A stretch of 64,000 nt of DNA from Eledone cirrhosa. Taxonomy: Eukaryota. Position numbers and translations under genes: made by a program. The first letter of the stretch is position 1. Each line of letters opens with the position of its first letter. The notes under the pieces are model-generated. The model did not search any database. It saw only the letters and a list, made by a program, of their open reading frames with translations, and was not told where the DNA came from. The DNA is taken from the NCBI GenBank assembly GCA_964016885.1, contig OZ024764.1, forward strand, positions 20,398,001 through 20,462,000, written 5' to 3'. Positions 20,903 through 57,570 of this stretch are shown here, piece by piece.

Positions 20903-21012
<110 letters not shown>

Positions 21013-21791
21013 GAGAGAGAGAGAGAGAAGGAGAATGATATTCTGACGGTCTCCCAGTTTATTCCGAAGTCTGAACAAAATATTTGCTGTTGATTGTATA
21101 ACTAGACTTTGGAGATTTTAAACAAAAAAACTAAGTTCTAATGGATAATATCACTGCTATTTCTAGCAGTTAGAGAGACTACGTAGAGGTTTTCTTATTG
21201 ATATATAATTGATATTTTATTGAGTGATACTTTCTGATTTACAATTATTTAAATACGATTGGAACTGTCTGAATGTATTAAATTATATCAGGGACTTTTA
21301 ACTAATGACACCGTTAAGAGAGTTTAACATTCTTAACGACACCGCGTACCTGCTGTCTTCATTATAACTTTAATTAATCTAATTATATCTTGTGTAACAA
21401 TTATATATATATACACAATTTTAATTCCCCGACATCAGTCTTACACTGTCATATCTATTCTTACTTTACAATTGTGTCTACTAAGAGTTCCATTACAATC
21501 TGTAGTAGTAAAACTACTATTTCACCAGAACATCTGCTGTCAGTCATTTATAGACAATATATATATTTTAGACCACATATCAACCTAATATATATATATT
21601 TCCTATCCTTTGGTTGTTTAGTAACGACTAACAACACAATACATTGATTATATGTGAAGGAGGTAAGTTGACAAAGATTTACTTAATGTCTATATTAATG
21701 TGTGTAAATAATATAATTATTTGAACCTTACAACGATCCAGTAATTAACCAGATTCCACTGTTACATGTGATATAAAATATATCATGACTG

Positions 21792-21997
21792 TCTTTATTA
21801 TTTAAATTACCTCCGTCTATTTAATTATGTGGTTCACTCCCTTACATTATAAAATATAGTTTATATTTAGCTGTACCTTGTTATTGCTTTAAGTAAATTA
21901 AAGATATCTTTATTATTTAAATTACCTCCGTCTATTTAATTATGTGGTTCACTCCCTTACATTATAAAATATAGTTTATATTTAGCTGTACCTTGTT
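21792..21997. repeat. 91-bp perfect direct duplication
   Basis: 21792-21882 equals 21907-21997. Confidence 0.9.
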
Positions 21998-22212
21998 TCA
22001 GGGAAGTTTTGTTCGTTTTAGTCTAAATCTATCTTGATTTAATTTACTTCATCTACACCAAAGGTTCTCAACCCATTTAGGCCAAACGCCCCCTTTTGTC
22101 CCTCGAATTCATGAAACGCCCCCTCCCCCGCCACCCTATTTTTTCACTTTTTCAATATACTACTGATTTTTATATCAGTAGATTACTAAAAAATTGATTA
22201 ACAATATTCCAA

Positions 22213-25200
22213 AGATGTGTGTATTATCTGATTATGTGTTGTATGTGGTCCTAGATGTGTGTATTATCTGATTATGTGTTGTATGTGGTCCTAGATGTGT
22301 GTATTATCTGATTATGTGTTGTATGTGGTCCTAGATGTGTGTATTATCTGATTATGTGTTGTATGTCGTCCTAGATGTGTGTATTATCTGATTATGTGTT
22401 GTATGTGGTCCTAGATGTGTGTATTATCTGATTATGTGTTGTATGTGGTCCTAGATGTGTGTATTATCTGATTATGTGTTGTATGTGGTCCTACATGTGT
22501 GTATTATCTGATTATGTGTTGCATGTGGTCCTACATGTGTGTGTTATCTGATTATGTGTTGTATGTAGTCCTAGATGTGTGTATTATCTGATTATGTGTT
22601 GTATGTGGTCCTAGATGTGTGTATTATCTGATTATGTGTTGTATGTGGTCCTAGATGTGTGTATTATCTGATTATGTGTTGTATGTGGTCCTAGATGTGT
22701 GTATTACCTGATTATGTGTTGTATGTAGTCCTAGATGTGTGTATTATCTGATTATGTGTTGTATGTGGCCCTAGATGTGTGTATTATCTGATTATGTGTT
22801 GTATGTGGTCCTAGATGTGTGTATTATCTGATTATGTGTTGTATGTGGTCCTAGATGTGTGTATTATCTGATTATGTGTTGTATGTGGTCCTAGATGTGT
22901 GTATTATCTGATTATGTGTTGTATGTAGTCCTAGATGTGTGTATTACCTGATTATGTGTTGTATGTAGTCCTAGATGTGTGTATTATCTGATTATGTGTT
23001 GTATGTGGCCCTAGATGTGTGTATTATCTGATTATGTGTTGTATGTGGTCCTAGATGTGTGTATTATCTGATTATGTGTTGCATGTGGTCCTACATGTGT
23101 GTATTATCTGATTATGTGTTGTATGTAGTCCTAGATGTGTGTATTATCTGATTGTGTTGTATGTGGTCCTAGATGTGTGTATTATCTGATTATGTGTTGT
23201 GTGTGGTCCTAGATGTGTGTATTATCTGATTATGTGTTGTATGTGGTCCTAGATGTGTGTATTATCTGATTATGTGTTGTATGTGGTCCTAAATGTGTGT
23301 ATTATCTGATTATGTGTTGTATGTGGTCCTAGATGTGTGTATTATCTGATTATGTGTTGCATGTGGTCCTACATGTGTGTATTATCTGACTATGTGTTGT
23401 ATGTAGTCCTACATGTGTGTATTATCTGATTATGTGTTGTATGTAGTCCTAGATGTGTGTATTATCTGATTATGTGTTGTATGTGGTCCTAGATGTGTGT
23501 ATTATCTGATTATGTGTTGCATGTGGTCCTAGATGTGTGTATTATCTGATTATGTGTTGTATGTGGTCCTAGATGTGTGTATTATCTGATTATGTGTTGT
23601 ATGTGGTCCTAGATGTGTGTATTATCTGATTATGTGTTGTATGTAGTCCTAGATGTGTGTATTATCTGATTATGTGTTGTATGTGGTCCTAGATGTGTGT
23701 ATTATCTGATTATGTGTTGTATGTGGTCCTAGATGTGTGTATTATCTGATTATGTGTTGTATGTGGTCCTAGATGTGTGTATTATCTGATTATGTGTTGT
23801 ATGTGGTCCTAGATGTGTGTATTATCTGATTATGTGTTGTATGTGGTCCTAGATGTGTGTATTATCTGATTATGTGTTGTATGTGGTCCTAGATGTGTGT
23901 ATTATCTGATTATGTGTTGTATGTAGTCCTAGATGTGTGTATTATCTGATTATGTGTTGTATGTGGTCCTAGATGTGTGTATTATCTGATTATATGTTGT
24001 ATGTGGTCCTAGATGTGTGTATTATCTGATTATGTGTTGTATGTGGTCCTAGATGTGTTTATTATCTGATTATGTGTTGTATGTGGTCCTAGCTGTGTGT
24101 ATTATCTGATTATGTGTTGTATGTGGTCCTAGATGTTTGTATTATCTGATTATATGTTGTATGTGGTGCTAGGTGTGTGTATTATCTGATTATGTGTTGT
24201 ATGTGGTCCTAGATGTGTGTATTATCTGATTATGTGTTGTATATGGTCCTAGATGTGTGTATTACCTGATTATGTGTTATATGTGGTCCTAGATGTGTGT
24301 ATTATCTGATTGTGTTGTATGTGGTCCTAGATGTTTGTATTATCTGATTATGTGTTGTATGTGGTCCTAGATGTTTGTATTATCTGATTATATGTTGTAT
24401 GTGGTGCTAGGTGTGTGTATTATCTGATTATGTGTTGTATGTGGTCCTAGATGTGTGTATTATCTGATTATGTGTTGTATATGGTCCTAGATGTGTGTAT
24501 TACCTGATTATGTGTTATATGTGGTCCTAGATGTGTGTATTATCTGATTGTGTTGTATGTGGTCCTAGATGTTTGTATTATCTGATTATGTGTTGTATGT
24601 GGTTCTAGATGTGTGTATTATCTGATTATGTGTTGTATGTGGTCCTAGATGTTTGTATTATCTGATTATGTGTTGTATGTGGTCCTACATGTGTGTATTA
24701 CCTGATTGTGTTGTATGTGGTCCTAGATGTGTGTATTATCTGATTATGTGTTGTATGTGGTCCTACATGTGTGTATTATCTGATTATGTGTTGTATGTGG
24801 TCCTACATGTGTGTATTATCTGATTATGTGTTGTATGTGGTCCTAGATGTGTGTATTATCTGATTATGTGTTGTATGTGGTCCTACATGTGTGTATTACC
24901 TGATTGTGTTGTATGTGGTCCTAGATGTGTGTATTATCTGATTATGTGTTGTATGTGGTCCTAGATGTGTGTATTATCTGATTATGTGTTGTATGTGGTC
25001 CTAGATGTGTGTATTATCTGATTATGTGTTGTATGTGGTCCTAGATGTTTGTATTATCTGATTATGTGTTGTATGTGGTCCTAGATGTATGTATTATCTG
25101 ATTATGTGTTGTATGTGGTCCTACATGTGTGTATTATCTGATTATGTGTTGTATGTGGTCCTAGATGTGTGTATTATCTGATTATGTGTTGTATGTGGTC

Positions 25201-28200
25201 CTAGATGTGTGTATTATCTGATTATGTGTTGTATGTGGTCCTAGATGTGTGTATTACCTGATTGTGTGTTGTATGTGGTCCTAGATGTGTGTATTATCTG
25301 ATTATGTGTTGTATGTGGTCCTAGATGTGTGTATTACCTGATTGTGTGTTGTATGTGGTCCTAGATGTGTGTATTATCTGATTATGTGTTGTATGTGGTC
25401 CTAGATGTGTGTATTATCTGATTATGTGTTGTATGTAGTCCTAGATGTGTGTATTATCTGATTATGTGTTGTATGTGGTCCTAGATGTTTGTATTATCTG
25501 ATTATGTGTTGTATGTGGTCCTAGATGTATGTATTATCTGATTATGTGTTGTATGTGGTCCTACATGTGTGTATTATCTGATTATGTGTTGTATGTGGCC
25601 CTAGATGTGTGTATTATCTGATTATGTGTTGTATGTGGTCCTAGATGTTTGTATTATCTGATTATGTGTTGTATGTGGTCCTAGATGTATGTATTATCTG
25701 ATTATGTGTTGTATGTGGTCCTACATGTGTGTATTATCTGATTATGTGTTGTATGTGGTCCTAGATGTGTGTATTATCTGATTATGTGTTGTATGTGGTC
25801 CTACATGTGTGTATTATCTGATTATGTGTTGTATGTGGTCCTAGATGTGTGTATTATCTGATTATGTGTTGTATGTGGTCCTACATGTGTGTATTATCTG
25901 ATTATGTGTTGTATGTGGTCCTACATGTGTGTATTATCTGATTATGTGTTGTATGTGGTCCTACATGTGTGTATTATCTGATTATGTGTTGTATGTGGTC
26001 CTAGATGTGTGTATTATCTGATTATGTGTTGTATGTGGTCCTAGATGTGTGTATTATCTGATTATGTGTTGTATGTGGTCCTAGATGTGTGTATTATCTG
26101 ATTATGTGTTGTATGTGGTCCTACATGTGTGTATTATCTGATTATGTGTTGTATGTGGTCCTACATGTGTGTATTATCTGATTATGTGTTGTATGTGGTC
26201 CTAGATGTGTGTATTATCTGATTATGTGTTGTATGTGGTCCTACATGTGTGTATTATCTGATTATGTGTTGTATGTGGTCCTAGACGTGTGTATTATCTG
26301 ATTATGTGTTGTATGTGGTCCTAGATGTGTGTATTATCTGATTATGTGTTGTATGTGGTCCTAGATGTGTGTATTATCTGATTATGTGTTGTATGTGGTC
26401 CTACATGTGTGTATTATCTGATTATGTGTTGTATGTGGTCCTACATGTGTGTATTATCTGATTATGTGTTGTATGTGGTCCTAGATGTGTGTATTATCTG
26501 ATTATGTGTTGTATGTGGTCCTACATGTGTGTATTATCTGATTATGTGTTGTATGTGGTCCTAGACGTGTGTATTATCTGATTATGTGTTGTATGTGGTC
26601 CTAGATGTGTGTATTATCTGATTATGTGTTGTATGTGGTCCTAGATGTGTGTATTATCTGATTATGTGTTGTATGTGGTCCTACATGTGTGTATTATCTG
26701 ATTATGTGTTGTATGTGGTCCTACATGTGTGTATTATCTGATTATGTGTTGTATGTGGTCCTAGATGTGTGTATTATCTGATTATGTGTTGTATGTGGTC
26801 CTACATGTGTGTATTATCTGATTATGTGTTGTATGTGGTCCTACATGTGTGTATTATCTGATTATGTGTTGTATGTGGTCCTAGACGTGTGTATTATCTG
26901 ATTATGTGTTGTATGTGGTCCTAGATGTGTGTATTATCTGATTATGTGTTGTATGTGGTCCTAGATGTGTGTATTATCTGATTATGTGTTGTATGTGGTC
27001 CTAGATGTGTGTATTATCTGATTATGTGTTGTATGTGGTCCTACATGTGTGTATTATCTGATTATGTGTTGTATGTGGTCCTACATGTGTGTATTATCTG
27101 ATTATGTGTTGTATGTGGTCCTAGATGTGTGTATTATCTGATTATGTGTTGTATGTGGTCCTAGATGTGTGTATTATCTGATTATGTGTTGTATGTGGTC
27201 CTAGATGTGTGTATTATCTGATTTTGTGTTGTATGTGGTCCTACATGTGTGTATTATCTGATTATGTGTTGTATGTGGTCCTAGATGTGTGTATTATCTG
27301 ATTATGTGTTGTATGTGGTCCTAGATGTGTGTATTATCTGATTTTGTGTTGTATGTGGTCCTACATGTGTGTATTATCTGATTATGTGTTGTATGTGGTC
27401 CTACATGTGTGTATTATCTGATTATGTGTTGCATGTGGTCCTACATGTGTGTATTATCTGATTATGTGTTGTATGTGGTCCTAGATGTGTGTATTACCTG
27501 ATTGTGTTGTATGTGGTCCTAGATGTGTGTATTATCTGATTATGTGTTGTATGTGGTCCTACATGTGTGTATTATCTGATTATGTGTTGCATGTGGTCCT
27601 AGATGTGTGTATTATCTGATTGTGTTGTATGTGGTCCTAGATGTGTGTATTATCTGATTATGTGTTGCATGTGGTCCTACATGTGTGTATTATCTGATTA
27701 TGTGTTGTATGTGGTCCTAGATGTGTGTATTATCTGATTATGTGTTGCATGTGGTCCTAGATGTGTGTATTATCTGATTGTGTTGTATGTGGTCCTACAT
27801 GTGTGTATTATCTGATTATGTGTTGTATGTGGTCCTAGATGTGTGTATTATCTGATTGTGTTGTATGTGGTCCTACATGTGTGTATTATCTGATTATGTG
27901 TTGTATGTGGTCCTACATGTGTGTATTATCTGATTATGTGTTGCATGTGGTCCTAGATGTGTGTATTATCTGATTATGTGTTGTATGTGGTCCTAGATGT
28001 GTGTATTACCTGATTGTGTTGTATGTGGTCCTAGATGTGTGTATTATCTGATTATGTGTTGTATGTGGTCCTAGATGTGTGTATTATCTGATTATATGTT
28101 GTATGTGGTCCTACATGTGTGTATTATCTGATTATGTGTTGTATGTGGTCCTAGATGTGTGTATTATCTGATTATATGTTGTATGTGGTCCTACATGTGT

Positions 28201-31200
28201 GTATTATCTGATTATGTGTTGTATGTGGTCCTAGATGTGTGTATTACCTGATTATGTGTTGTATGTGGTCCTAGATGTGTGTATTACCTGATTGTGTTGT
28301 ATGTGGTCCTAGATGTGTGTATTATCTGATTATGTGTTGTATGTGGTCCTAGATGTGTGTATTACCTGATTATGTGTTGTATGTGGTCCTAGATGTGTGT
28401 ATTATCTGATTATGTGTTGTATGTGGTCCTAGATGTGTGTATTACCTGATTATGTGTTGTATGTGGTCCTAGATGTGTGTATTATCTGATTGTGTTGTAT
28501 GTGGTCCTAGATGTGTGTATTATCTGATTATGTGTTGCATGTGGTCCTACATGTGTGTATTACCTGATTGTGTTGTATGTGGTCCTACATGTGTGTATTA
28601 CCTGATTGTGTTGTATGTGGTCCTAGATGTGTGTATTATCTGATTATGTGTTGTATGTGGTCCTACATGTGTGTATTATCTGATTATGTGTTGTATGTGG
28701 TCCTACATGTGTGTATTACCTGATTGTGTTGTATGTGGTCCTAGATGTGTGTATTATCTGATTATGTGTTGTATGTGGTCCTACATGTGTGTATTATCTG
28801 ATTATGTGTTGTATGTGGTCCTACATGTGTGTATTATCTGATTATGTGTTGTATGTGGTCCTAGATGTGTGTATTATCTGATTATGTGTTGTATGTGGTC
28901 CTACATGTGTGTATTACCTGATTGTGTTGTATGTGGTCCTAGATGTGTGTATTATCTGATTATGTGTTGTATGTGGTCCTACATGTGTGTATTATCTGAT
29001 TATGTGTTGTATGTGGTCCTAGATGTGTGTATTATCTGATTATGTGTTGCATGTGGTCCTACATGTGTGTATTACCTGATTGTGTTGTATGTGGTCCTAG
29101 ATGTGTGTATTATCTGATTATGTGTTGTATGTGGTCCTAGATGTGTGTATTATCTGATTATGTGTTGTATGTGGTCCTACATGTGTGTATTATCTGATTA
29201 TGTGTTGTATGTGGTCCTAGATGTGTGTATTATCTGATTATGTGTTGTATGTAGTCCTAGATGTGTGTATTATCTGATTATGTGTTGTATGTGGTCCTAG
29301 ATGTGTGTATTATCTGATTATGTGTTGTATGTAGTCCTAGATGTGTGTATTATCTGATTATGTGTTGTATGTGGTCCTAGATGTGTGTATTATCTGATTA
29401 TGTGTTGTATGTAGTCCTAGATGTGTGTATTATCTGATTATGTGTTGTATGTGGTCCTAGATGTGTGTATTATCTGATTATGTGTTGTATGTAGTCCTAG
29501 ATGTGTGTATTATCTGATTATGTGTTGTATGTGGTCCTAGATGTGTGTATTATCTGATTATGTGTTGTATGTAGTCCTAGATGTGTGTATTATCTGATTA
29601 TGTGTTGTATGTGGTCCTAGATGTGTGTATTATCTGATTATGTGTTGTATGTAGTCCTAGATGTGTGTATTATCTGATTATGTGTTGTATGTGGTCCTAG
29701 ATGTGTGTATTATCTGATTATGTGTTGTATGTGGTCCTAGATGTGTGTATTATCTGATTATGTGTTGTATGTAGTCCTAGATGTGTGTATTATCTGATTA
29801 TGTGTTGTATGTGGTCCTAGATGTGTGTATTATCTGATTATGTGTTGTATGTAGTCCTAGATGTGTGTATTATCTGATTATGTGTTGTATGTGGTCCTAG
29901 ATGTGTGTATTATCTGATTATGTGTTGTATGTGGTCCTAGATGTGTGTATTATCTGATTATGTGTTGTATGTAGTCCTAGATGTGTGTATTATCTGATTA
30001 TGTGTTGTATGTGGTCCTAGATGTGTGTATTATCTGATTATGTGTTGTATGTAGTCCTAGATGTGTGTATTATCTGATTATGTGTTGTATGTGGTCCTAG
30101 ATGTGTGTATTATCTGATTATGTGTTGTATGTAGTCCTAGATGTGTGTATTATCTGATTATGTGTTGTATGTGGTCCTAGATGTGTGTATTATCTGATTA
30201 TGTGTTGTATGTAGTCCTAGATGTGTGTATTATCTGATTATGTGTTGTATGTGGTCCTAGATGTGTGTATTATCTGATTATGTGTTGTATGTAGTCCTAG
30301 ATGTGTGTATTATCTGATTATGTGTTGTATGTGGTCCTAGATGTGTGTATTATCTGATTATGTGTTGTATGTAGTCCTAGATGTGTGTATTATCTGATTA
30401 TGTGTTGTATGTGGTCCTAGATGTGTGTATTATCTGATTATGTGTTGTATGTAGTCCTAGATGTGTGTATTATCTGATTATGTGTTGTATGTGGTCCTAG
30501 ATGTGTGTATTATCTGATTATGTGTTGTATGTAGTCCTAGATGTGTGTATTATCTGATTATGTGTTGTATGTGGTCCTAGATGTGTGTATTATCTGATTA
30601 TGTGTTGTATGTAGTCCTAGATGTGTGTATTATCTGATTATGTGTTGTATGTAGTCCTAGATGTGTGTATTATCTGATTATGTGTTGTATGTAGTCCTAG
30701 ATGTGTGTATTATCTGATTATGTGTTGTATGTGGTCCTACATGTGTGTATTATCTGATTATGTGTTGTATGTGGTCCTACATGTGTGTATTATCTGATTG
30801 TGTTGTATGTAGTCCTAGATGTGTGTATTATCTGATTATGTGTTGTATGTGGTCCTACATGTGTGTATTATCTGATTATGTGTTGTATGTGGTCCTACAT
30901 GTGTGTATTATCTGATTGTGTTGTATGTGGTCCTAGATGTGTGTATTATCTGATTATGTGTTGTATGTAGTCCTAGATGTGTGTATTATCTGATTATGTG
31001 TTGTATATGGTCCTAGATGTGTGTATTATCTGATTGTGTTGTATGTAGTCCTACATGTGTGTATTATCTGATTATGTGTTGTATGTGGTCCTACATGTGT
31101 GTATTATCTGATTGTGTTGTATGTGGTCCTACATGTGTGTATTACCTGATTATGTGTTGTATGTGGTCCTAGATGTGTGTATTATCTGATTATGTGTTGT

Positions 31201-34200
31201 ATGTAGTCCTAGATGTGTGTATTATCTGATTATGTGTTGTATGTGGTCCTACATGTGTGTATTATCTGATTATGTGTTGTATGTAGTCCTAGATGTGTGT
31301 ATTATCTGATTATGTGTTGTATGTGGTCCTAGATGTGTGTATTATCTGATTATGTGTTGTATGTGGTCCTAGATGTGTGTATTATCTGATTATGTGTTGT
31401 ATGTAGTCCTACATGTGTGTATTATCTGATTATGTGTTGTATGTGGTCCTAGATGTGTGTATTATCTGATTATGTGTTGTATGTGGTCCTACATGTGTGT
31501 ATTATCTGATTATGTGTTGTATGTGGTCCTAGATGTGTGTATTATCTGATTATGTGTTGTATGTGGTCCTAGATGTGTGTATTATCTGATTATGTGTTGT
31601 ATGTAGTCCTAGATGTGTGTATTATCTGATTATGTGTTGTATGTAGTCCTACATGTGTGTATTATCTGATTATGTGTTGTATGTAGTCCTAGATGTGTGT
31701 ATTATCTGATTATGTGTTGTATGTAGTCCTACATGTGTGTATTATCTGATTATGTGTTGTATGTAGTCCTAGATGTGTGTATTATCTGATTATGTGTTGT
31801 ATGTGGTCCTAGATGTGTGTATTATCTGATTATGTGTTGTATGTGGTCCTAGATGTGTGTATTATCTGATTATGTGTTGTATGTGGTCCTACATGTGTGT
31901 ATTATCTGATTATGTGTTGTATGTGGTCCTAGATGTGTGTATTATCTGATTATGTGTTGTATGTGGTCCTAGATGTGTGTATTATCTGATTATGTGTTGT
32001 ATGTAGTCCTAGATGTGTGTATTATCTGATTATGTGTTGTATGTGGTCCTAGATGTGTGTATTATCTGATTATGTGTTGTATGTGGTCCTAGATGTGTGT
32101 ATTATCTGATTATGTGTTGTATGTGGTCCTACATGTGTGTATTATCTGATTGTGTTGTATGTGGTCCTAGATGTGTGTATTATCTGATTATGTGTTGTAT
32201 GTGGTCCTAGACGTGTGTATTATCTGATTATGTGTTGTATGTGGTCCTAGATGTGTGTATTATCTGATTTTGTGTTGTATGTGGTCCTACATGTGTGTAT
32301 TATCTGATTATGTGTTGTATGTGGTCCTAGATGTGTGTATTATCTGATTATGTGTTGTATGTGGTCCTAGATGTGTGTATTATCTGATTTTGTGTTGTAT
32401 GTGGTCCTACATGTGTGTATTATCTGATTATGTGTTGTATGTGGTCCTAGATGTGTGTATTATCTGATTATGTGTTGTATGTGGTCCTAGATGTGTGTAT
32501 TATCTGATTATGTGTTGTATGTGGTCCTAGATGTGTGTATTATCTGATTATGTGTTGTATGTGGTCCTACATGTGTGTATTATCTGATTATGTGTTGTAT
32601 GTGGTCCTAGATGTGTGTATTATCTGATTAAATGTTGTATGTGGTCCTAGATGTGTGTATTATCTGATTATGTGTTGTATGTGGTCCTAGATGTGTGTAT
32701 TATCTGATTATGTGTTGTATGTGGTCCTAGATGTGTGTATTATCTGATTATGTGTTGTATGTGGTCCTAGATGTGTGTATTACCTGATTATGTGTTGTAT
32801 GTGGTCCTAGATGTGTGTATTACCTGATTATGTGTTGTATGTGGTCCTAGATGTGTGTATTACCTGATTATGTGTTGTATGTGGTCCTAGATGTGTGTAT
32901 TACCTGATTGTGTTGTATGTGGTCCTAGATGTGTGTATTACCTGATTATGTGTTGTATGTGGTCCTAGATGTGTGTATTACCTGATTGTGTTGTATGTGG
33001 TCCTAGATGTGTGTATTATCTGATTATGTGTTGTATGTGGTCCTACATGTGTGTATTATCTGATTATGTGTTGTATGTGGTCCTAGATGTGTGTATTATC
33101 TGATTATGTGTTGTATGTGGTCCTAGATGTGTGTATTATCTGATTATGTGTTGTATGTGGTCCTAGATGTGTGTATTATCTGATTATGTGTTGTATGTGG
33201 TCCTAGATGTGTGTATTATCTGATTATGTGTTGTATGTGGTCCTAGATGTGTGTATTATCTGATTATGTGTTGTATGTGGTCCTAGATGTGTGTATTATC
33301 TGATTATGTGTTGTATGTGGTCCTAGATGTGTGTATTATCTGATTATGTGTTGTATGTGGTCCTAGATGTGTGTATTATCTGATTATGTGTTGTATGTGG
33401 TCCTAGATGTGTGTATTATCTGATTATGTGTTGTATGTGGTCCTAGATGTGTGTATTATCTGATTAAATGTTGTATGTGGTCCTAGATATTTGTATTATC
33501 TGATTATGTGTTGCATGTGGTCCTACATGTGTGTATTATCTGATTGTGTTGTATGTAGTCCTAGATGTGTGTATTATCTGATTATGTGTTGTATGTGGTC
33601 CTAGATGTGTGTATTATCTGATTATGTGTTGTATGTGGTCCTAGATGTGTGTATTATCTGATTATGTGTTGTATGTGGTCCTACATGTGTGTATTATCTG
33701 ATTATGTGTTGTATGTAGTCCTAGATGTGTGTATTATCTGATTATGTGTTGTATGTGGTCCTAGATGTGTGTATTATCTGATTATGTGTTGTATGTGGTC
33801 CTAGATGTGTGTATTATCTGATTATGTGTTGTATGTGGTCCTAGATGTGTGTATTATCTGATTATGTGTTGTATGTAGTCCTAGATGTGTGTATTATCTG
33901 ATTATGTGTTGTATGTGGTCCTAGATGTGTGTATTATCTGATTATGTGTTGTATGTGGTCCTAGATGTGTGTATTATCTGATTATGTGTTGTATGTGGTC
34001 CTAGATGTGTGTATTATCTGATTATGTGTTGTATGTGGTCCTAGATGTGTGTATTATCTGATTGTGTTGTATGTGGTCCTAGATGTGTGTATTATCTGAT
34101 TATGTGTTGTATGTGGTCCTAGATGTGTGTATTATCTGATTATGTGTTGTATGTAGTCCTAGATGTGTGTATTATCTGATTGTGTTGTATGTGGTCCTAG

Positions 34201-37200: not shown

Positions 37201-40200
37201 ATCTGATTATGTGTTGTATGTGGTCCTAGCATGTGTGTATTATCTGATTATGTGTTGTATGTGGTCCTAGATGTGTGTATTATCTGATTATGTGTTGTAT
37301 GTGGTCCTACATGTGTGTATTATCTGATTATGTGTTGTATGTGGTCCTAGCATGTGTGTATTATCTGATTATGTGTTGTATGTGGTCCTAGATGTGTGTA
37401 TTATCTGATTATGTGTTGTATGTGGTCCTACGATGTGTGTATTATCTGATTATGTGTTGTATGTGGTCCTACATGTGTGTATTATCTGATTATGTGTTGT
37501 ATGTGGTCCTAGATGTGTGTATTATCTGATTATGTGTTGTATGTGGTCCTACATGTGTGTATTATCTGATTATGTGTTGTATGTGGTCCTACATGTGTGT
37601 ATTATCTGATTATGTGTTGTATGTGGTCCTACATGTGTGTATTATCTGATTATGTGTTGTATGTGGTCCTACATGTGTGTATTATCTGATTATGTGTTGT
37701 ATGTGGTCCTACATGTGTGTATTATCTGATTATGTGTTGTATGTGGTCCTAGATGTGTGTATTATCTGATTATGTGTTGTATGTGGTCCTAGATGTGTGT
37801 ATTATCTGATTATGTGTTGTATGTGGTCCTACATGTGTGTATTATCTGATTATGTGTTGTATGTGGTCCTACATGTGTGTATTATCTGATTATGTGTTGT
37901 ATGTGGTCCTACATGTGTGTATTATCTGATTATATGTTGTACATGGTCCTAGATGTGTGTATTATCTGATTATGTGTTGTATGTGGTCCTAGATGTGTGT
38001 ATTATCTGATTATGTGTTGTATGTGGTCCTAGATGTGTGTATTATCTGATTATGTGTTGTATGTGGTCCTAGATGTGTGTATTATCTGATTATGTGTTGT
38101 ATGTGTTCCTAGATGTGTGTATTATCTGATTATGTGTTGTATGTGGTCCTACATGTGTGTATTATCTGATTATGTGTTGTATGTGGTCCTAGATGTGTTT
38201 ATTATCTGATTATGTGTTGTATGTGGTCCTAGATGTGTGTATTATCTGATTATGTGTTGTATGTAGTCCTAGATGTGTGTATTATCTGATTATGTGTTGT
38301 ATGTGGTCCTAAATGTGTGTATTATCTGATTATATGTTGTATGTAGTCCTAGATGTGTGTATTATCTGATTATGTGTTGTATGTGGTCCTAGATGTGTTT
38401 ATTATCTGATTATGTGTTGTATGTGGTCCTAGATGTGTTTATTATCTGATTATGTGTTGTATGTGGTCCTAGATGTGTTTATTATCTGATTATGTGTTGT
38501 ATGTAGTCCTAGATGTGTGTATTATCTGATTATGTGTTGTATGTGGTCCTAGATGTGTGTATTATCTGATTATGTGTTGTATGTGGTCCTAAATGTGTGT
38601 ATTATCTGATTATGTGTTGTATGTAGTCCTAGATGTGTGTATTATCTGATTATGTGTTGTATGTAGTCCTAGATGTGTGTATTATCTGATTATGTGTTGT
38701 ATGTGGTCCTAAATGTGTGTATTATCTGATTATATGTTGTATGTAGTCCTAGATGTGTGTATTATCTGATTATGTGTTGTATGTGGTCCTAGATGTGTTT
38801 ATTATCTGATTATGTGTTGTATGTGGTCCTAGATGTGTTTATTATCTGATTATGTGTTGTATGTGGTCCTAGATGTGTTTATTATCTGATTATGTGTTGT
38901 ATGTAGTCCTAGATGTGTGTATTATCTGATTATGTGTTGTATGTGGTCCTAGATGTGTGTATTATCTGATTATGTGTTGTATGTGGTCCTAAATGTGTGT
39001 ATTATCTGATTATGTGTTGTATGTAGTCCTAGATGTGTGTATTATCTGATTATGTGTTGTATGTGGTCCTAAATGTGTGTATTATCTGATTATATGTTGT
39101 ATGTAGTCCTAGATGTGTGTATTATCTGATTATGTGTTGTATGTGGTCCTAGATGTGTGTATTATCTGATTATGTGTTGTATGTGGTCCTAGATGTGTGT
39201 ATTATCTGATTATGTGTTGTATGTTGTCCTAGATGTGTGTATTATCTGATTATGTGTTGTATGTGGTCCTAAATGTGTGTATTATCTGATTATGTGTTGT
39301 ATGTGGTCCTAGATGTGTGTATTATCTGATTATGTGTTGCATGTGGTCCTACATGTGTGTATTATCTGATTATGTGTTGTATGTAGTCCTACATGTGTGT
39401 ATTATCTGATTATGTGTTGTATGTAGTCCTAGATGTGTGTATTATCTGATTATGTGTTGTATGTGGTCCTAGATGTGTGTATTATCTGATTATGTGTTGT
39501 ATGTGGTCCTAGATGTGTGTATTATCTGATTATGTGTTGCATGTGGTCCTACATGTGTGTATTATCTGATTATGTGTTGTATGTAGTCCTAGATGTGTGT
39601 ATTATCTGATTGTGTTGTATGTGGTCCTAGATGTGTGTATTATCTGATTATGTGTTGTATGTGGTCCTAGATGTGTGTATTATCTGATTATGTGTTGTAT
39701 GTGGTCCTAGATGTGTGTATTATCTGATTATGTGTTGTATGTGGTCCTAAATGTGTGTATTATCTGATTATGTGTTGTATGTGGTCCTAGATGTGTGTAT
39801 TATCTGATTATGTGTTGTATGTGGTCCTAGATGTTTGTATTATCTGATTATGTGTTGTATGTGGTCCTAGATGTGTGTATTATCTGATTATGTGTTGTAT
39901 GTGGTCCTAGATGTTTGTATTATCTGATTATGTGTTGTATGTGGTCCTAGATGTGTGTATTATCTGATTATGTGTTGTATGTGGTCCTAGATGTGTGTAT
40001 TATCTGATTATGTGTTGTCTGTGGTCCTAGATGTGTGTATTATCTGATTATGTGTTGTATGTGGTCCTAGATGTGTGTATTATCTGATTATGTGTTGTAT
40101 GCGGTCCTAGATGTGTGTATTATCTGATTATGTGTTGTATGTGGTCCTAGATGTTTGTATTATCTGATTATGTGTTGCATGTGGTCCTACATGTGTGTAT

Positions 40201-43200
40201 TATCTGATTGTGTTGTATGTAGTCCTAGATGTGTGTATTATCTGATTATGTGTTGTATGTGGTCCTAGATGTGTGTATTATCTGATTATGTGTTGTATGT
40301 GGTCCTAGATGTGTGTATTATCTGATTATGTGTTGTATGTGGTCCTAGATGTGTATATTATCTGATTATGTGTTGCATGTGGTCCTACATGTGTGTATTA
40401 TCTGATTATGTGTTGTATGTAGTCCTAGATGTTTGTATTATCTGATTGTGTGTTGCATGTGGTCCTACATGTGTGTATTATCTGATTATGTGTTGTATGT
40501 GGTCCTAGATGTGTGTATTATCTGATTATGTGTTGCATGTGGTCCTACATGTGTGTATTATCTGATTATGTGTTGTATGTAGTCCTACATGTGTGTATTA
40601 TCTGATTATGTGTTGTATGTAGTCCTAGATGTGTGTATTATCTGATTATGTGTTGTATGTGTTCCTAGATGTGTGTATTATCTGATTATGTGTTGTATGT
40701 GGTCCTAGATGTGTGTATTATCTGATTATGTGTTGTATGTAGTCCTAGATGTATGTATTATCTGATTATGTGTTGTATGTGGTCCTAGATGTGTGTATTA
40801 TCTGATTATGTGTTGTATGTGGTCCTAGATGTGTGTATTATCTGATTATGTGTTGTATGTGGTCCTAGATGTTTGTATTATCTGATTATATGTTGTATGT
40901 GGTGCTAGGTGTGTGTATTATCTGATTATGTGTTGTATGTGGTCCTAGATGTGTGTGTTATCTGATTATGTGTTGTATGTGGTCCTAGATGTGTGTATTA
41001 TCTGATTATGTGTTGTATGTAGTCCTAGATGTGTGTATTATCTGATTATGTGTTGTATGTGGTCCTAGATGTTTGTATTATCTGATTATGTGTTGTATGT
41101 GGTCCTAGATGTGTGTATTATCTGATTATGTGTTGTATGTGGTCCTAGATGTTTGTATTATCTGATTATGTGTTGTATGTGGTCCTAGATGTGTGTATTA
41201 TCTGATTATGTGTTGTATGTGGTCCTAGATGTGTGTATTATCTGATTATGTGTTGTCTGTGGTCCTAGATGTGTGTATTATCTGATTATGTGTTGTATGT
41301 GGTCCTAGATGTGTGTATTATCTGATTATGTGTTGTATGTGGTCCTAGATGTGTGTATTATCTGATTATGTGTTGTATGTGGTCCTAGATGTGTGTATTA
41401 TCTGATTAAATGTTGTATGTGGTCCTAGATATTTGTATTATCTGATTATGTGTTGCATGTGGTCCTACATGTGTGTATTATCTGATTGTGTTGTATGTAG
41501 TCCTAGATGTGTGTATTATCTGATTATGTGTTGTATGTGGTCCTAGATGTGTGTATTATCTGATTATGTGTTGTATGTGGTCCTAGATGTGTGTATTATC
41601 TGATTATGTGTTGTATGTGGTCCTACATGTGTGTATTATCTGATTATGTGTTGTATGTAGTCCTAGATGTGTGTATTATCTGATTATGTGTTGTATGTGG
41701 TCCTAGATGTGTGTATTATCTGATTATGTGTTGTATGTGGTCCTAGATGTGTGTATTATCTGATTATGTGTTGTATGTGGTCCTAGATGTGTGTATTATC
41801 TGATTATGTGTTGTATGTGGTCCTAGATGTGTGTATTATCTGATTATGTGTTGTATGTAGTCCTAGATGTGTGTATTATCTGATTGTGTTGTATGTGGTC
41901 CTAGATGTGTGTATTATCTGATTATGTGTTGTATGTGGTCCTAGATGTGTGTATTATCTGATTATGTGTTGTATGTGGTCCTAGATGTGTGTATTATCTG
42001 ATTATGTGTTGTATGTGGTCCTAAATGTGTGTATTATCTGATTATGTGTTGTATGTGGTCCTAGATGTGTGTATTATCTGATTATGTGTTGCATGTGGTC
42101 CTACATGTGTGTATTATCTGATTATGTGTTGTATGTAGTCCTACATGTGTGTATTATCTGATTATGTGTTGTATGTAGTCCTAGATGTGTGTATTATCTG
42201 ATTATGTGTTGTATGTGGTCCTAGATGTGTGTATTATCTGATTATGTGTTGCATGTGGTCCTAGATGTGTGTATTATCTGATTATGTGTTGTATGTGGTC
42301 CTAGATGTGTGTATTATCTGATTATGTGTTGTATGTGGTCCTAGATGTGTGTATTATCTGATTATGTGTTGTATGTAGTCCTAGATGTGTGTATTATCTG
42401 ATTATGTGTTGTATGTGGTCCTAGATGTGTGTATTATCTGATTATGTGTTGTATGTGGTCCTAGACGTGTGTATTATCTGATTATGTGTTGTATGTGGTC
42501 CTAGATGTGTGTATTATCTGATTATGTGTTGTATGTGGTCCTAGATGTGTGTATTATCTGATTATGTGTTGTATGTGGTCCTAGATGTGTGTATTATCTG
42601 ATTATGTGTTGTATGTGGTCCTAGATGTGTGTATTATCTGATTATGTGTTGTATGTAGTCCTAGATGTGTGTATTATCTGATTATGTGTTGTATGTGGTC
42701 CTAGATGTGTGTATTATCTGATTATGTGTTGTATGTGGTCCTAGATGTGTGTATTATCTGATTATGTGTTGTATGTGGTCCTAGATGTGTTTATTATCTG
42801 ATTATGTGTTGTATGTGGTCCTAGATGTGTGTATTATCTGATTATGTGTTGTATGTGGTCCTAGATGTTTGTATTATCTGATTATATGTTGTATGTGGTG
42901 CTAGGTGTGTGTATTATCTGATTATGTGTTGTATGTGGTCCTAGATGTGTGTATTATCTGATTATGTGTTGTATATGGTCCTAGATGTGTGTATTACCTG
43001 ATTATGTGTTATATGTGGTCCTAGATATGTGTATTATCTGATTGTGTTGTATGTGGTCCTAGATGTTTGTATTATCTGATTATGTGTTGTATGTGGTCCT
43101 AGATGTGTGTATTATCTGATTATGTGTTGTATGTGGTCCTACATGTGTGTATTACCTGATTGTGTTGTATGTGGTCCTAGATGTGTGTATTATCTGATTA

Positions 43201-46200
43201 TGTGTTGTATGTGGTCCTAGATGTGTGTATTATCTGATTATGTGTTGTATGTGGTCCTACATGTGTGTATTATCTGATTATGTGTTGCATGTGGTCCTAC
43301 ATGTGTGTATTATCTGATTATGTGTTGTATGTAGTCATAGATGTGTGTATTATCTGATTGTGTTGTATGTGGTCCTAGATGTGTGTATTATCTGATTATG
43401 TGTTGTATGTGGTCCTAGATGTGTGTATTATCTGATTATGTGTTGTATGTGGTCCTAGATGTGTGTATTATCTGATTATGTGTTGTATGTGGTCCTAAAT
43501 GTGTGTATTATCTGATTATGTGTTGTATGTGGTCCTAGATGTGTGTATTATCTGATTATGTGTTGTATGTGGTCCTAGATGTTTGTATTATCTGATTATG
43601 TGTTGTATGTGGTCCTAGATGTGTGTATTATCTGATTATGTGTTGTATGTGGTCCTAGATGTTTGTATTATCTGATTATGTGTTGTATGTGGTCCTAGAT
43701 GTGTGTATTATCTGATTATGTGTTGTATGTGGTCCTAGATGTGTGTATTATCTGATTATGTGTTGTCTGTGGTCCTAGATGTGTGTATTATCTGATTATG
43801 TGTTGTATGTGGTCCTAGATGTGTGTATTATCTGATTATGTGTTGTATGTGGTCCTAGATGTGTGTATTATCTGATTATGTGTTGTATGTGGTCCTAGAT
43901 GTGTGTATTATCTGATTATGTGTTGTATGTGGTCCTAGATGTTTGTATTATCTGATTATGTGTTGCATGTGGTCCTACATGTGTGTATTATCTGATTGTG
44001 TTGTATGTAGTCCTAGATGTGTGTATTATCTGATTATGTGTTGTATGTGGTCCTAGATGTGTGTATTATCTGATTATGTGTTGTATGTGGTCCTAGATGT
44101 GTGTATTATCTGATTATGTGTTGTATGTGGTCCTAGATGTGTATATTATCTGATTATGTGTTGCATGTGGTCCTACATGTGTGTATTATCTGATTATGTG
44201 TTGTATGTAGTCCTAGATGTTTGTATTATCTGATTGTGTGTTGCATGTGGTCCTACATGTGTGTATTATCTGATTATGTGTTGTATGTGGTCCTAGATGT
44301 GTGTATTATCTGATTATGTGTTGCATGTGGTCCTACATGTGTGTATTATCTGATTATGTGTTGTATGTAGTCCTACATGTGTGTATTATCTGATTATGTG
44401 TTGTATGTAGTCCTAGATGTGTGTATTATCTGATTATGTGTTGTATGTGGTCCTAGATGTGTGTATTATCTGATTATGTGTTGTATGTGGTCCTAGATGT
44501 GTGTATTATCTGATTATGTGTTGTATGTAGTCCTAGATGTGTGTATTATCTGATTATGTGTTGTATGTGGTCCTAGATGTGTGTATTATCTGATTATGTG
44601 TTGTATGTGGTCCTAGATGTGTGTATTATCTGATTATGTGTTGTATGTGGTCCTAGATGTTTGTATTATCTGATTATATGTTGTGTGTGTATTATCTGAT
44701 TATGTGTTGTATATGGTCCTAGATGTGTGTATTACCTGATTATGTGTTATATGTGGTCCTAGATGTGTGTATTATCTGATTGTGTTGTATGTGGTCCTAG
44801 ATGTTTGTATTATCTGATTATGTGTTGTATGTGGTCCTAGATGTTTGTATTATCTGATTATGTGTTGTATGTGGTCCTAGATGTGTGTATTATCTGATTA
44901 TGTGTTGTATGTGGTCCTAGATGTTTGTATTATCTGATTATGTGTTGTATGTAGTCCTAGATGTGTGTATTATCTGATTATGTGTTGTATGTGGTCCTAG
45001 ATGTGTGTATTATCTGATTATGTGTTGCATGTGGTCCTAGATGTGTGTATTATCTGATTATGTGTTGTATGTGGTCCTAGATGTGTGTATTATCTGATTA
45101 TGTGTTGTATGTGGTCCTAGATGTGTGTATTATCTGATTATGTGTTGTATGTAGTCCTAGATGTGTGTATTATCTGATTATGTGTTGTATGTGGTCCTAG
45201 ATGTGTGTATTATCTGATTATGTGTTGTATGTGGTCCTAGACGTGTGTATTATCTGATTATGTGTTGTATGTGGTCCTAGATGTGTGTATTATCTGATTA
45301 TGTGTTGTATGTGGTCCTAGATGTGTGTATTATCTGATTATGTGTTGTATGTGGTCCTAGATGTGTGTATTATCTGATTATGTGTTGTATGTGGTCCTAG
45401 ATGTGTGTATTATCTGATTATGTGTTGTATGTAGTCCTAGATGTGTGTATTATCTGATTATGTGTTGTATGTGGTCCTAGATGTGTGTATTATCTGATTA
45501 TGTGTTGTATGTGGTCCTAGATGTGTGTATTATCTGATTATGTGTTGTATGTGGTCCTAGATGTGTTTATTATCTGATTATGTGTTGTATGTGGTCCTAG
45601 ATGTTTGTATTATCTGATTATATGTTGTATGTGGTGCTAGGTGTGTGTATTATCTGATTATGTGTTGTATGTGGTCCTAGATGTGTGTATTATCTGATTA
45701 TGTGTTGTATATGGTCCTAGATGTGTGTATTACCTGATTATGTGTTATATGTGGTCCTAGATATGTGTATTATCTGATTGTGTTGTATGTGGTCCTAGAT
45801 GTTTGTATTATCTGATTATGTGTTGTATGTGGTCCTAGATGTGTGTATTATCTGATTATGTGTTGTATGTGGTCCTACATGTGTGTATTACCTGATTGTG
45901 TTGTATGTGCTCCTAGATGTGTGTATTATCTGATTATGTGTTGTATGTGGTCCTAGATGTGTGTATTATCTGATTATGTGTTGTATGTGGTCCTAGATGT
46001 GTGTATTATCTGATTATGTGTTGCATGTGGTCCTACATGTGTGTATTATCTGATTATGTGTTGTATGTAGTCATAGATGTGTGTATTATCTGATTGTGTT
46101 GTATGTGGTCCTAGATGTGTGTATTATCTGATTATGTGTTGTATGTGGTCCTAGATGTGTGTATTATCTGATTATGTGTTGTATGTGGTCCTAGATGTGT

Positions 46201-49200
46201 GTATTATCTGATTATGTGTTGTATGTGGTCCTAAATGTGTGTATTATCTGATTATGTGTTGTATGTGGTCCTAGATGTGTGTATTATCTGATTATGTGTT
46301 GTATGTGGTCCTAGATGTTTGTATTATCTGATTATGTGTTGTATGTGGTCCTAGATGTGTGTATTATCTGATTATGTGTTGTCTGTGGTCCTAGATGTGT
46401 GTATTATCTGATTATGTGTTGTATGTGGTCCTAGATGTGTGTATTATCTGATTATGTGTTGTATGTGGTCCTAGATGTGTGTATTATCTGATTATGTGTT
46501 GTATGTGGTCCTAGATGTGTGTATTATCTGATTATGTGTTGTATGTGGTCCTAGATGTTTGTATTATCTGATTATGTGTTGCATGTGGTCCTACATGTGT
46601 GTATTATCTGATTGTGTTGTATGTAGTCCTAGATGTGTGTATTATCTGATTATGTGTTGTATGTGGTCCTAGATGTGTGTATTATCTGATTATGTGTTGT
46701 ATGTGGTCCTAGATGTGTGTATTATCTGATTATGTGTTGTATGTGGTCCTAGATGTGTATATTATCTGATTATGTGTTGCATGTGGTCCTACATGTGTGT
46801 ATTATCTGATTATGTGTTGTATGTAGTCCTAGATGTTTGTATTATCTGATTGTGTGTTGCATGTGGTCCTACATGTGTGTATTATCTGATTATGTGTTGT
46901 ATGTGGTCCTAGATGTGTGTATTATCTGATTATGTGTTGCATGTGGTCCTACATGTGTGTATTATCTGATTATGTGTTGTATGTTGTCCTACATGTGTGT
47001 ATTATCTGATTATGTGTTGTATGTAGTCCTAGATGTGTGTATTATCTGATTATGTGTTGTATGTGGTCCTAGATGTGTGTATTATCTGATTATGTGTTGT
47101 ATGTGGTCCTAGATGTGTGTATTATCTGATTATGTGTTGTATGTAGTCCTAGATGTGTGTATTATCTGATTATGTGTTGTATGTGGTCCTAGATGTGTGT
47201 ATTATCTGATTATGTGTTGTATGTGGTCCTAGATGTGTGTATTATCTGATTATGTGTTGTATGTGGTCCTAGATGTTTGTATTATCTGATTATATGTTGT
47301 GTGTGTATTATCTGATTATGTGTTGTATATGGTCCTAGATGTGTGTATTACCTGATTATGTGTTATATGTGGTCCTAGATGTGTGTATTATCTGATTGTG
47401 TTGTATGTGGTCCTAGATGTTTGTATTATCTGATTATGTGTTGTATGTGGTCCTAGATGTTTGTATTATCTGATTATGTGTTGCATGTGGTCCTACATGT
47501 GTGTATTATCTGATTATGTGTTGCATGTGGTCCTACATGTGTGTATTATCTGATTATGTGTTGTATGTGGTCCTAGATGTGTGTATTATCTGATTATGTG
47601 TTGCATGTGGTCCTACATGTGTGTATTATCTGATTATGTGTTGTATGTGGTCCTAGATGTGTGTATTATCTGATTATGTGTTGTATGTGGTCCTAGATGT
47701 TTGTATTATCTGATTATGTGTTGTCTGTGGTCCTAGATGTGTGTATTATCTGATTATGTGTTGTCTGTGGTCCTAGATGTGTGTATTATCTGATTATGTG
47801 TTGTATGTGGTCCTAGATGTGTGTATTATCTGATTATGTGTTGTATGTGGTCCTACATGTGTGTATTATCTGATTATGTGTTGTATGTGGTCCTAGATGT
47901 GTGTATTATCTGATTATGTGTTGTATGTGGTCCTAGATGTGTGTATTATCTGATTATGTGTTGTATGTGGTCCTACATGTGTGTATTACCTGATTGTGTT
48001 GTATGTGGTCCTAGATGTGTGTATTATCTGATTATGTGTTGTATGTGGTCCTAGATGTGTGTATTATCTGATTATGTGTTGTATGTGGTCCTACATGTGT
48101 GTATTATCTGATTATGTGTTGTATGTGGTCCTAGATGTGTGTATTATCTGATTATGTGTTGTATGTGGTCCTAGATGTGTGTATTATCTGATTATGTGTT
48201 GTATGTAGTCCTAGATGTGTGTATTATCTGATTATGTGTTGTATGTGGTCCTACATGTGTGTATTAGCTGATTATGTGTTGTATGTGGTCCTAGATGTGT
48301 GTATTATCTGATTATGTGTTGTATGTGGTCCTAGATGTGTGTATTATCTGATTATGTGTTGTATGTGGTCCTACATGTGTGTATTATCTGATTATGTGTT
48401 GTATGTGGTCCTAGACGTGTGTATTATCTGATTATGTGTTGTATGTGGTCCTAGATGTGTGTATTATCTGATTATGTGTTGTATGTGGTCCTAGATGTGT
48501 GTATTATCTGATTATGTGTTGTATGTGGTCCTAGATGTGTGTATTATCTGATTATGTGTTGTATGTGGTCCTAGATGTGTGTATTAGCTGATTATGTGTT
48601 GTATGTGGTCCTAGATGTGTGTATTATCTGATTATGTGTTGTATGTGGTCCTACATGTGTGTATTATCTGATTATGTGTTGTATGTGGTCCTAGATGTGT
48701 GTATTATCTGATTATGTGTTGTATGTGGTCCTAGATGTGTGTATTATCTGATTATGTTGTATGTGGTCCTACATGTGTGTATTATCTGATTATGTGTTGT
48801 ATGTGGTCCTAGACGTGTGTATTATCTGATTATGTGTTGTATGTGGTCCTAGATGTGTGTATTATCTGATTATGTGTTGCATGTGGTCCTAGATGTGTGT
48901 ATTATCTGATTATGTGTTGTATGTGGTCCTAGATGTGTGTATTATCTGATTATGTGTTGCATGTGGTCCTAGATGTGTGTATTATCTGATTATGTGTTGT
49001 ATGTGGTCCTAGATGTGTGTATTATCTGATTATGTGTTGTATGTGGTCCTAGATGTGTGTATTATCTGATTATGTGTTGTATGTGGTCCTAGATGTGTGT
49101 ATTAGCTGATTATGTGTTGTATGTGGTCCTAGATGTGTGTATTATCTCATTATGTGTTGTATGTGTTCCTAGATGTGTGTATTATCTGATTATATGTTGT

Positions 49201-49448
49201 ATGTGGTCCTAGATGTGTGTATTATCTGATTATGTGTTGTATGTGGTCCTAGATGTGTGTATTATCTGATTATGTGTTGTATGTGGTCCTACATGTGTGT
49301 ATTTTCTGATTATGTGTTGTATGTGGTCCTAGATGTGTGTATTATCTGATTATGTGTTGTATGTGGTCCTAGATGTGTGTATTATCTGATTATGTGTTGT
49401 ATGTGGTCCTACATGTGTGTATTTTCTGATTATGTGGTCCTAGATGTG
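22213..49448. repeat. 40-bp satellite array, ~680 copies
   Basis: Consensus AGATGTGTGTATTATCTGATTATGTGTTGTATGTGGTCCT. Recurrent variants are CTAG/CTAC, GTGG/GTAG and a 2-bp deletion. Confidence 0.98.
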
Positions 49449-49614
49449 AGTTCTACTCGCTTCTGTTTTTTTCTTTTCTTTTTTTTTTATTTGTAATATT
49501 ATTTATACAATAAGGAATAAAATAAATCTACATAGTGTTAACTCGTTATGGTTGAGTCAATAATTTTAGACAAGATTCTGTCTGCGCTCAAAGTGTCTTT
49601 GACCCAGTTGACTG

Positions 49615-49792
49615 TGGGTTTTTCCATTTTTAGGATCCCAATTACCGGTTAACGTCTCAATTACTGGACATGCCTGCACACCTGCTCACAGCTGTAGACA
49701 GCATAACTATAGTCTGACCGCAGGTGTGCAGGCATGTCCGGTAATTGAGACGTTAACCGGTAATTGAGATCCTAAAAAATGGAAAAAACCCA
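49615..49792. repeat. Inverted repeat, ~71-bp arms, 34-nt loop
   Basis: TGGGTTTTTCC...GCACACCTGC (49615-49685) pairs with GCAGGTGTGC...GGAAAAAACCCA (49720-49792). Confidence 0.9.
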
Positions 49793-49967
49793 GCACCCCC
49801 ATAACCCCCTCCCCCAGCTCCAAACGCCCCCCTAACGCGACCTTGCTCCCAAACGCCCCCCTAACGCGACCTTGCTCTCAACCGCCCCCCCTGGAGTTCT
49901 GAAATGCCCCCCCCCCCCCCCCCCCCCCGGGATCATATGCCCCTCGTTGAGAACCTTTGATCTACAC

Positions 49968-50880
49968 CATCATCATAATTTTACGTCCGTTTTTCAATCC
50001 TGGCATGGGTTGGTGGGTCCTTTTAAGCACAACATCTCACCACTAGCTTGTTCCTTCGTCATCTGTAAGTCACAGCAATTTGAGATCAGCTCTCACCACA
50101 CCTACCCTCGGCTCCCTCTAGTATGGCTTCCCTTCTCTGGTTTTCTGTGGCACTTCTTTAACCAGTGATTACTAATTTCTTCCTCATTTAATCCAAGCTC
50201 TGCCTTCCTCTCACATTTACGTTGCACACCCAACGAAGCATGGTTGCTCCATTTCTCTCTAGCTTATGCATGTCTTCTGCAGTTACTGCCCATGTTTCAC
50301 TTCCATGCAGTATTGCACTTTACACACAAGCATTGTACAGCCAACATCTTTGTACGTAGGGAGAAACCTGTATTTGCCAACAGTGGAAGTAGCTCTCTAA
50401 ACTTCAATCCTATCCTCTCTTACGAGGCACCCTCCTCTGCTGCTAATTAGGTTACCTAGATAGCGGAAGCTATCATTGTGTACAGTTTATGCCTACTTCT
50501 ATCCTACATGCGCAGTAGGGTCACTTATTCTCTAGTTCTTTTATGGATGCAGCTATAAGGACCAGATCATTCACATTAGACTGTTTCCCATGAACAGCCA
50601 GTCTTAAACCCATTGGTTATGGCCTGGAGAACTATGAAGAACAGCAGTGGGTTGTGAACTGTACCATGATGAACACCTACCTGTACATTGAATTCCTCAC
50701 TAAACTCCCTTCCTATTCTCACTTTACTGACAGGTCCACTGTACATGGCTTGCACTGCTCTCAAAAGCCATTCTCCACCTAATTTTCTGAAGGACCACCA
50801 GATAATAGAGTAAGGTACTCTGTCAAAGGCATTTTCTAGATCTAGGATCTTCTCTTGTAGTTGTCTCACTAACAAGTTTC
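49968..50880 (-). mobile_element. RTE LINE fragments (RT to 3' end)
   Basis: DLENAFDRVP...VGVHHGTVHNPLLF, with a (GAT)n tail at ~49968. Confidence 0.8.
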
Positions 50881-50964
50881 ATCAGTAATTCCAAAGAGAA
50901 TGTCAATTATATGTGTGTGTGTGTTGAACAATGAACATAAAACAAAAGTCTAAGATTGCTTCTT

Positions 50965-57042: not shown

Positions 57043-57570
<528 letters not shown>

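Follow-up and report, generated by a model that had tools for sequence, protein, structure and literature searches.

The MITE miDNA4-Xt was reportedly described by Scalvenzi and Pollet in 2014. It is a Tc1/mariner element of Xenopus tropicalis that carries a satellite motif. According to the available passages of three papers, most copies hold one unit, the multi-unit copies lie near telomeres, and growth is proposed to start from microhomologies at the unit edges (PMC12628747, PMC9659126, PMC12054243). The route from MITE to satellite is already known, and the element described here, found in a 64,000-nucleotide stretch of DNA that we call the window, is a further example. Judged from the same passages, miDNA4 is its closest precedent. 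Both families have a TIR-(unit)n-TIR layout with one unit in most copies and many in some, and in both a pre-existing repeat appears to have been captured. Short direct repeats at the unit edges are the proposed driver of growth in both, and the subtelomeric position of multi-unit miDNA4 copies has a hint of a parallel in the window family. However, the window family is of the hAT/Buster type, has an 8-bp TSD, and still has transposase-bearing intermediates. In the miDNA4 model, long arrays lose their ends, whereas here both TIRs are still present around arrays of 27 and 144 kb, and an array of 48 kb has lost its right TIR.

Other elements offer partial parallels, as far as the accessible texts describe them. 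In Tetris/TIR-220 of Drosophila virilis, the internal tandem repeats of a non-autonomous element also gave rise to satellite-like arrays, but Tetris is a foldback element with larger units, and its repeats lie inside the TIRs (PMC4079207). The internal tandem repeats of Helitron/Helentron central arrays likewise grow; however, Helitrons are rolling-circle elements with larger units. The Buster/Charlie subgroup of hAT elements has TIRs of 14 to 16 bp and transposases of 597 to 677 aa (PMC3499496; PMC12637253, AnBT and others), and the target consensus of TcBuster is nnnTAnnn (PMC3499496). The window element is similar in its 8-bp nnnTAnnn TSD, its 14-bp TIR, and its relatives with a ZBED5/ZBED8-like transposase of about 590 aa. 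It differs in being non-coding and in holding an internal tandem array, and no intact two-ended autonomous copy was found.

Octopods have lineage-specific C2H2 expansions of clustered, recently duplicated single-ORF genes, according to the available part of one report (PMC12513265), in which the word "satellite" does not occur. The zinc-finger genes of the window are also clustered, recently duplicated, and single-ORF, but the array is a passenger of their duplication unit and is not found in all such genes. The text of a 2026 repeat annotation of Octopus vulgaris does not mention satellites, and the 80 satellite families of its supplement lack these motifs; its repeat library could contain the family. 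We found no hAT-borne case of MITE-to-satellite conversion in review passages and a literature search whose scope excluded most subscription papers, and no description of the window MITE family in the literature searched, a scope that excluded repeat databases. This silence is weak evidence of absence.

Structure of the window element

The window element is a hAT MITE of the Buster/Charlie type with an array grown inside it. A first-pass annotation of this DNA had reported about 680 copies of a 40-mer within perfect 14-bp TIRs and an exact 8-bp TSD, and all of these features were recovered. The TSD, ATCTACAC, is at 22051 to 22058 and 49960 to 49967 (both + strand), its only two occurrences in the whole window, and is of the nnnTAnnn type. 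The left TIR, CAAAGGTTCTCAAC, is at 22059 to 22072 (+ strand), and the right TIR, its reverse complement, is at 49946 to 49959 (- strand). The match between the two ends extends for 14 bp and then ceases. Between them, about 681 head-to-tail 40-bp units (22213 to 49436, + strand; TRF period 40, 681.7 copies, 95% matches) are enclosed by a left MITE body of 154 bp (22059 to 22212, + strand) and a non-coding right MITE body of 523 bp (49437 to 49959, + strand). Without the array, the element is therefore only about 0.7 kb long, as had been claimed.

Four subterminal AAACGCCCCC motifs were also present where annotated, at 22084 and 22114 in the left body and at 49822 and 49851 in the right body. 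All four are on the + strand, so they are direct and not inverted. Together with the exact 8-bp TSD and the short TIRs, they identify a hAT element. The right body also contains a 74-nt inverted repeat (49612-49685/49720-49793) and a 29-bp subterminal repeat (49820-49890). No ORF of at least 120 aa was found within 22059 to 49959. The element is a MITE, being short, non-coding, and TIR-bounded, with many similar dispersed copies.

The commonest unit is matched by 45% of the units of the array, and the mean difference is 2.5%. Such a long, homogeneous head-to-tail array is a satellite, and elsewhere in the family the arrays have up to 3,571 units. Among the repeated blocks of the window array, no regular higher-order period was found. 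Macrosatellites have units of hundreds to thousands of bases, and we rejected this label of the first-pass annotation for a unit of 40 bp. An Rfam search of the window gave no family for the unit, with matches outside the element only. Hairpin-driven expansion was rejected as well, because the fold of three units was no better than that of shuffles (z 0.30).

Chance pairing of the two ends is excluded, because both belong to one dispersed family, short versions of the element lie between the same two flanks at 15 further loci, and three empty paralogous loci have a single ATCTACAC. These empty sites, which the first-pass annotation had proposed to look for, confirm the insertion.

The MITE family and its target sites

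Genome searches with the two window ends each matched many dispersed copies. The exact left-junction pattern has 252 matches, so the family has at least 252 copies, and the TIR 14-mer has 1,934 matches, versus 25 for a control. Most of the best-matching solo copies measure 0.56 to 0.83 kb, hold one or two units, and are flanked by 8-bp TSDs of their own. A 25-mer of the unit has 5,290 exact matches in the genome, of which at least 4,614 fall in the element loci examined. TA occupies TSD positions 4 and 5 (nnnTAnnn) at 76 of 77 distinct target sites, as in the TcBuster consensus. The Charlie-like hAT identity first proposed was correct. Among 60 complete sites, the TSD is exact in 47 and within one mismatch in 55.

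The left TIR has CACAGG (base 3 = C) in 90 of 95 elements, including 16 other filled same-site paralogs. CAAAGG (base 3 = A) was found only in the window element and its near-identical copy, which means that the perfect TIR of the window reflects a one-base change in the window lineage and is no sign of youth. The undamaged TIRs and TSD had been read as marks of a recent event; this reading loses its force when the matching TIR base is derived and most complete sites keep exact TSDs. In a tree of 81 of the 95 elements, the 12 same-site elements form one clade (99/73, with bootstrap not fully settled) among one-unit MITEs. The terminal branch of the window element is 0.03, versus a median of 0.024. 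The 14 elements dropped had open, truncated, or oversized ends and included three giant arrays.

Two other clusters of copies were observed. At 13.0 to 15.1 Mb of contig C27 (L032-L035, L037, L059), a second single insertion, with TSD GTCTAGAA, has been duplicated at least six times and has 16 to 27 units; no C2H2 ORF was present in 30 kb around one copy. At 11.31 to 11.33 Mb of contig C9 (L137-L138), three neighboring element copies have 25 to 57 units, and their left TIR was not found.

Transposase-bearing relatives and the origin of the 40-bp unit

A Buster-type transposon with a transposase of about 590 aa exists in the genome. Open frames of 588 aa are present at two loci, where the left 158 bp are shared with the MITE and no unit was seen. 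In these full-length relatives, the left MITE body corresponds to the end 3' of the transposase gene (82 to 87% identity over 158 bp). Among the best 120 of 642 matches, the protein resembles ZBED5/ZBED8/SCAND3-like proteins, which we take to be Buster-derived, at 44 to 56% identity, and one unnamed record at 78%. The Buster label of the 588-aa protein is a putative one, drawn from homolog names and motifs; searches of Pfam and PDB gave no match. Four of the five long-ORF loci examined share only one end with the MITE, and at the fifth lies a two-ended derivative with half of the transposase. A transposase copy flanked by both TIRs was not seen at these five loci or among the 150 of 2,307 candidates that were scored.

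Elements with TIR pairs 2.0 to 3.5 kb apart (nine examined) share both ends with the MITE and have the 3' half of the transposase on the opposite strand. This half adjoins a short array of the same 40-bp unit. Two to 18 units (median, 9) were counted in 24 of 29 long elements, the parsable ones. Their unit next to the right body is nearest to the satellite unit, with 3.3 differences versus 4.6 to 5.7. Since about nine divergent units are present in these longer transposase-bearing relatives, the MITE appears to have inherited the 40-bp unit and not to have created it. The MITE had been proposed as the birthplace of the array; instead, it seems to have kept one or two units of an older one. At the left junction, CCAAAGAT is followed by ACC in the long derivatives versus GTG in the MITE. 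From these junctions, we infer that a deletion at AGAT microhomology in a longer derivative may have yielded the MITE.

Array expansion across the family

A pattern that requires at least six units had 66 matches, one of them false, leaving about 65 copies. The anchor of this pattern differs slightly from that of the 252-copy pattern, and the expanded share of about a quarter is approximate. The window array is thus not unique, and arrays elsewhere reach 144 kb and 48 kb. In 40 regions examined, arrays range from 6 to more than 100 units, nearly all at unrelated sites. Complete expanded elements with both ends were found in 27 of the 40, and 23 of these 27 have exact TSDs. The largest arrays have 3,571, 1,231, 681 (the window), 565, 283, and at least 201 units.

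The 3,571-unit array is gap-free over 144.7 kb and lies between both TIRs, with a one-mismatch TSD (G000:C2:408506019-408650742; L117, L212-L224, L118, L119). This copy and a one-unit copy (L016) occupy the same position of a LINE-like repeat, with flanks that are 89 to 91% alike, through either independent use of a preferred target or an old duplication. The 1,231-unit array of 48 kb has lost its right TIR (G000:C1:435956238-436005400; L128, L210, L211, L225-L227). Its place is taken by an unlike tandem repeat with a period of about 49 bp, which may come from some other hAT-like element.

Signature variants are private to each of the largest arrays examined, and a comparison of the window with three unrelated big arrays gave no 8-unit informative block in common. 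The only array with which the window array has variants and an 11-unit block in common is that of its near-identical copy. This result suggests that the window array expanded where it lies and that its units turned over there, once the paralogs had split. Short arrays did travel with the element in the longer derivatives and probably in two-unit MITEs; a group of separate insertions has one two-unit variant pattern in common.

Hand counts over the first 100 of 252 rows did not support a perfect direct repeat at the first unit as favoring expansion (0 of 21 versus 12 of 79, p = 0.066), and the window's own lineage is a counter-example. On two contigs, giant copies were 2 of 3 in the distal 2% versus 0 of 68 elsewhere (p = 0.001, post hoc), in a comparison that leaves out the 565-unit array, which lies at 10% from an end and was missed by the junction pattern. 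The result is a hint of a bias of giant arrays toward contig ends. The window array itself is 30% into its contig.

Paralogous insertion sites

The left flank with the TSD occurs at 21 places in the genome, on four large contigs and two small ones. Three of these sites are empty, with one ATCTACAC, and 18 are filled, with 3 to 681 units. Fifteen filled loci have 3 to 23 units, and the others have at least 201, about 280 (283), and 681; 16 of the 18 have at least six. The paralogs share 1 to 5 kb of flank with the window. Both the left flank (20903 to 22058, mostly 89 to 97%, on other contigs) and the right flank (49960 to 55100, 92 to 96%) are common to paralogous zinc-finger duplication units. 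Homology reaches the zinc-finger gene start (54.7 to 55.1 kb) in 5 of 18 examined 10-kb paralog stretches, and a C2H2 ORF is present in three.

The right flanks of 14 filled paralogs differ from that of the window by 3.2 to 4.5%, with two paralogs with rearranged flanks (C10, L096) left out, and those of the empty ones differ by 3.4 to 4.2%. The element body differs by 3.5 to 5.6% from 11 same-site copies. These divergences, the same TSD and kilobases of flank at 18 loci, and the single clade in the element tree indicate one old insertion, which spread as the gene unit was duplicated. In the star-like flank tree, the window falls weakly with the empty sites (94/87), and gene conversion could therefore obscure which paralogs are older. 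Aligned to a 7-unit paralog, a single contig of run X1 bridges the element, skipping 869 bases with just 23 letters on the short side, which weakly fits an empty site. Run X6, from another organism, covers the 40-bp unit, but its coverage of the element bodies is slight or absent. With one insertion in 18 replicates (3 to 681 units) and three empty sites, array growth and its effect on the neighboring gene can be tested with matched controls.

Alternative explanations

The first-pass annotation viewed the MITE as the possible vehicle of the large array in a recent event. The intact TIRs and TSD would suit an element that transposed recently with the large array as cargo, and short arrays did move, as derivatives of about nine units with their own TSDs and the recurrent two-unit pattern indicate. 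However, intact TSDs are the family norm, each big array has private variants, and the same-TSD copies at 18 loci share kilobases of flank, which points to segmental duplication. Divergences of 3.2 to 4.5% in the flanks and 3.5 to 5.6% in the element body do not fit a recent event either. Recent transposition with the array as cargo is largely refuted, and we give it almost no chance. It is also quite improbable that an assembly error, in the form of an over-expanded array or a join of paralogs, created the 27-kb length or brought the two ends together. The length of the window array is assembly-derived, and no piece in four public runs aligned to the 7-unit paralog spans even that short element. 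Furthermore, a near-identical copy 3.5 Mb away (G000:C25:23882001-23910387; L082-L084; 98.3 to 99.8% to window 2.2 to 22.2 kb) has at least 201 units and ends in a 200-N gap inside the array. This copy is a haplotype that was misplaced or a duplicate of recent date; either way, the region is hard to assemble. But the window has no N, its units are heterogeneous with few long exact self-repeats (the longest, 16 units), and its variant spectrum is steady over all 14 bins, as expected of one array. The same flank order also brackets the complete 283-unit paralog and the 15 short ones.

An array at a zinc-finger locus might instead have grown because growth was favored or functional, by silencing or insulating the downstream gene or by promoting duplication of the cluster. 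The expansion of 16 of the 18 filled paralogs to at least six units fits this idea, as does the presence of three of the six arrays of more than 200 units at the window insertion site. However, the 18 copies come from one insertion and are not independent, and two of those three arrays may be one locus. Empty and 3-unit paralogs exist, and the window's 27-kb array has only 14 CpG. No C2H2 ORF occurs in the stretches examined around the 144-kb, C27, and C22 arrays; for the 144-kb array, the largest, these are about 60 kb of flanks, which speaks against a special tie of the array to the zinc-finger cluster. We consider functional growth unlikely. Most probably, the array is neutral DNA without a selected function, and neutral stochastic growth by slippage and unequal exchange would be the most likely mechanism. 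In the available part of a review, unequal crossover is the standard model of array growth. One more far-reaching idea, a long shot, is that the MITE family is a genome-wide satellite seeder, with runaway growth mainly near chromosome ends and in duplicating zinc-finger clusters, and that array length tunes the downstream gene. In that case, the regulation of a neural gene family by a satellite would have a natural dose series in the 21 paralogs, with their 0 to 681 units.

Proposed history

We think it very likely that the window holds an old Buster/Charlie-type hAT MITE, itself non-coding, in which the internal 40-bp unit multiplied in situ to about 681 copies, and that this growth followed the copying of the insertion together with the zinc-finger gene unit. 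Its history would start with the Buster-type transposon and its transposase of about 590 aa. From this, a 2- to 3.5-kb derivative may have descended, which lacks the 5' half of the transposase, has about nine divergent units and an end of about 500 bp, and has transposed many times. A second deletion, at the 4-bp AGAT microhomology, would then have joined position ~157 to the last unit or units and produced a MITE of about 0.65 to 0.7 kb with one or two units; the junctions are those described above, and the order of the two deletions is our suggestion. One copy inserted at this site, with a zinc-finger ORF about 5 kb downstream, and copying of the gene unit gave at least 18 filled loci, beside three empty paralogs. 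A direct repeat of 9 to 10 bp that bounds the single unit would permit a first duplication by slippage. Afterward, unequal exchange or gene conversion may have driven stochastic growth separately at each locus, as the locus-private variants suggest. One assembly contains all of the stages, from a full-length transposase through an array-bearing derivative and a one-unit MITE to arrays whose size runs from 6 to 3,571 units and which mostly still lie between their TIRs.

Zinc-finger genes and other features of the window

The array does lie between two zinc-finger genes, as first annotated. One C2H2 ORF (13854-15938, + strand), with 21 fingers by motif count, is about 6 kb from the element, and the other (54911-56644, + strand), with 18 fingers, is about 5 kb downstream. 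For the N-terminal region of one zinc-finger ORF, only Octopus proteins cover 98% of the query among the matches listed, which makes an octopod genome likely. In the near-identical copy on C25, an in-frame stop divides the first zinc-finger ORF into parts with 13 and 7 fingers. Tandem repeats of 78 to 80 bp occur just 3' of each zinc-finger ORF (1-241, 16393-16827, and 57013-57573). They are about 70 to 74% similar to the 84-bp finger repeat and look like decayed fingers turned minisatellite.

An unrelated 49-bp array of 21 copies is upstream of the first zinc-finger ORF (11366-12392). A 132-aa frame at 59588-59986 (- strand), which had no Pfam match, resembles a fragment of a Tc1/mariner transposase in its motifs. 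In the whole window, Rfam gave only two tRNA-like matches (785-842 and 58111-58168, - strand), outside the element, in duplicated sequence; they are probably SINE heads. An element of 963 bp (8662-9624) has 216-nt arms that are 99% complementary and is probably another young MITE.
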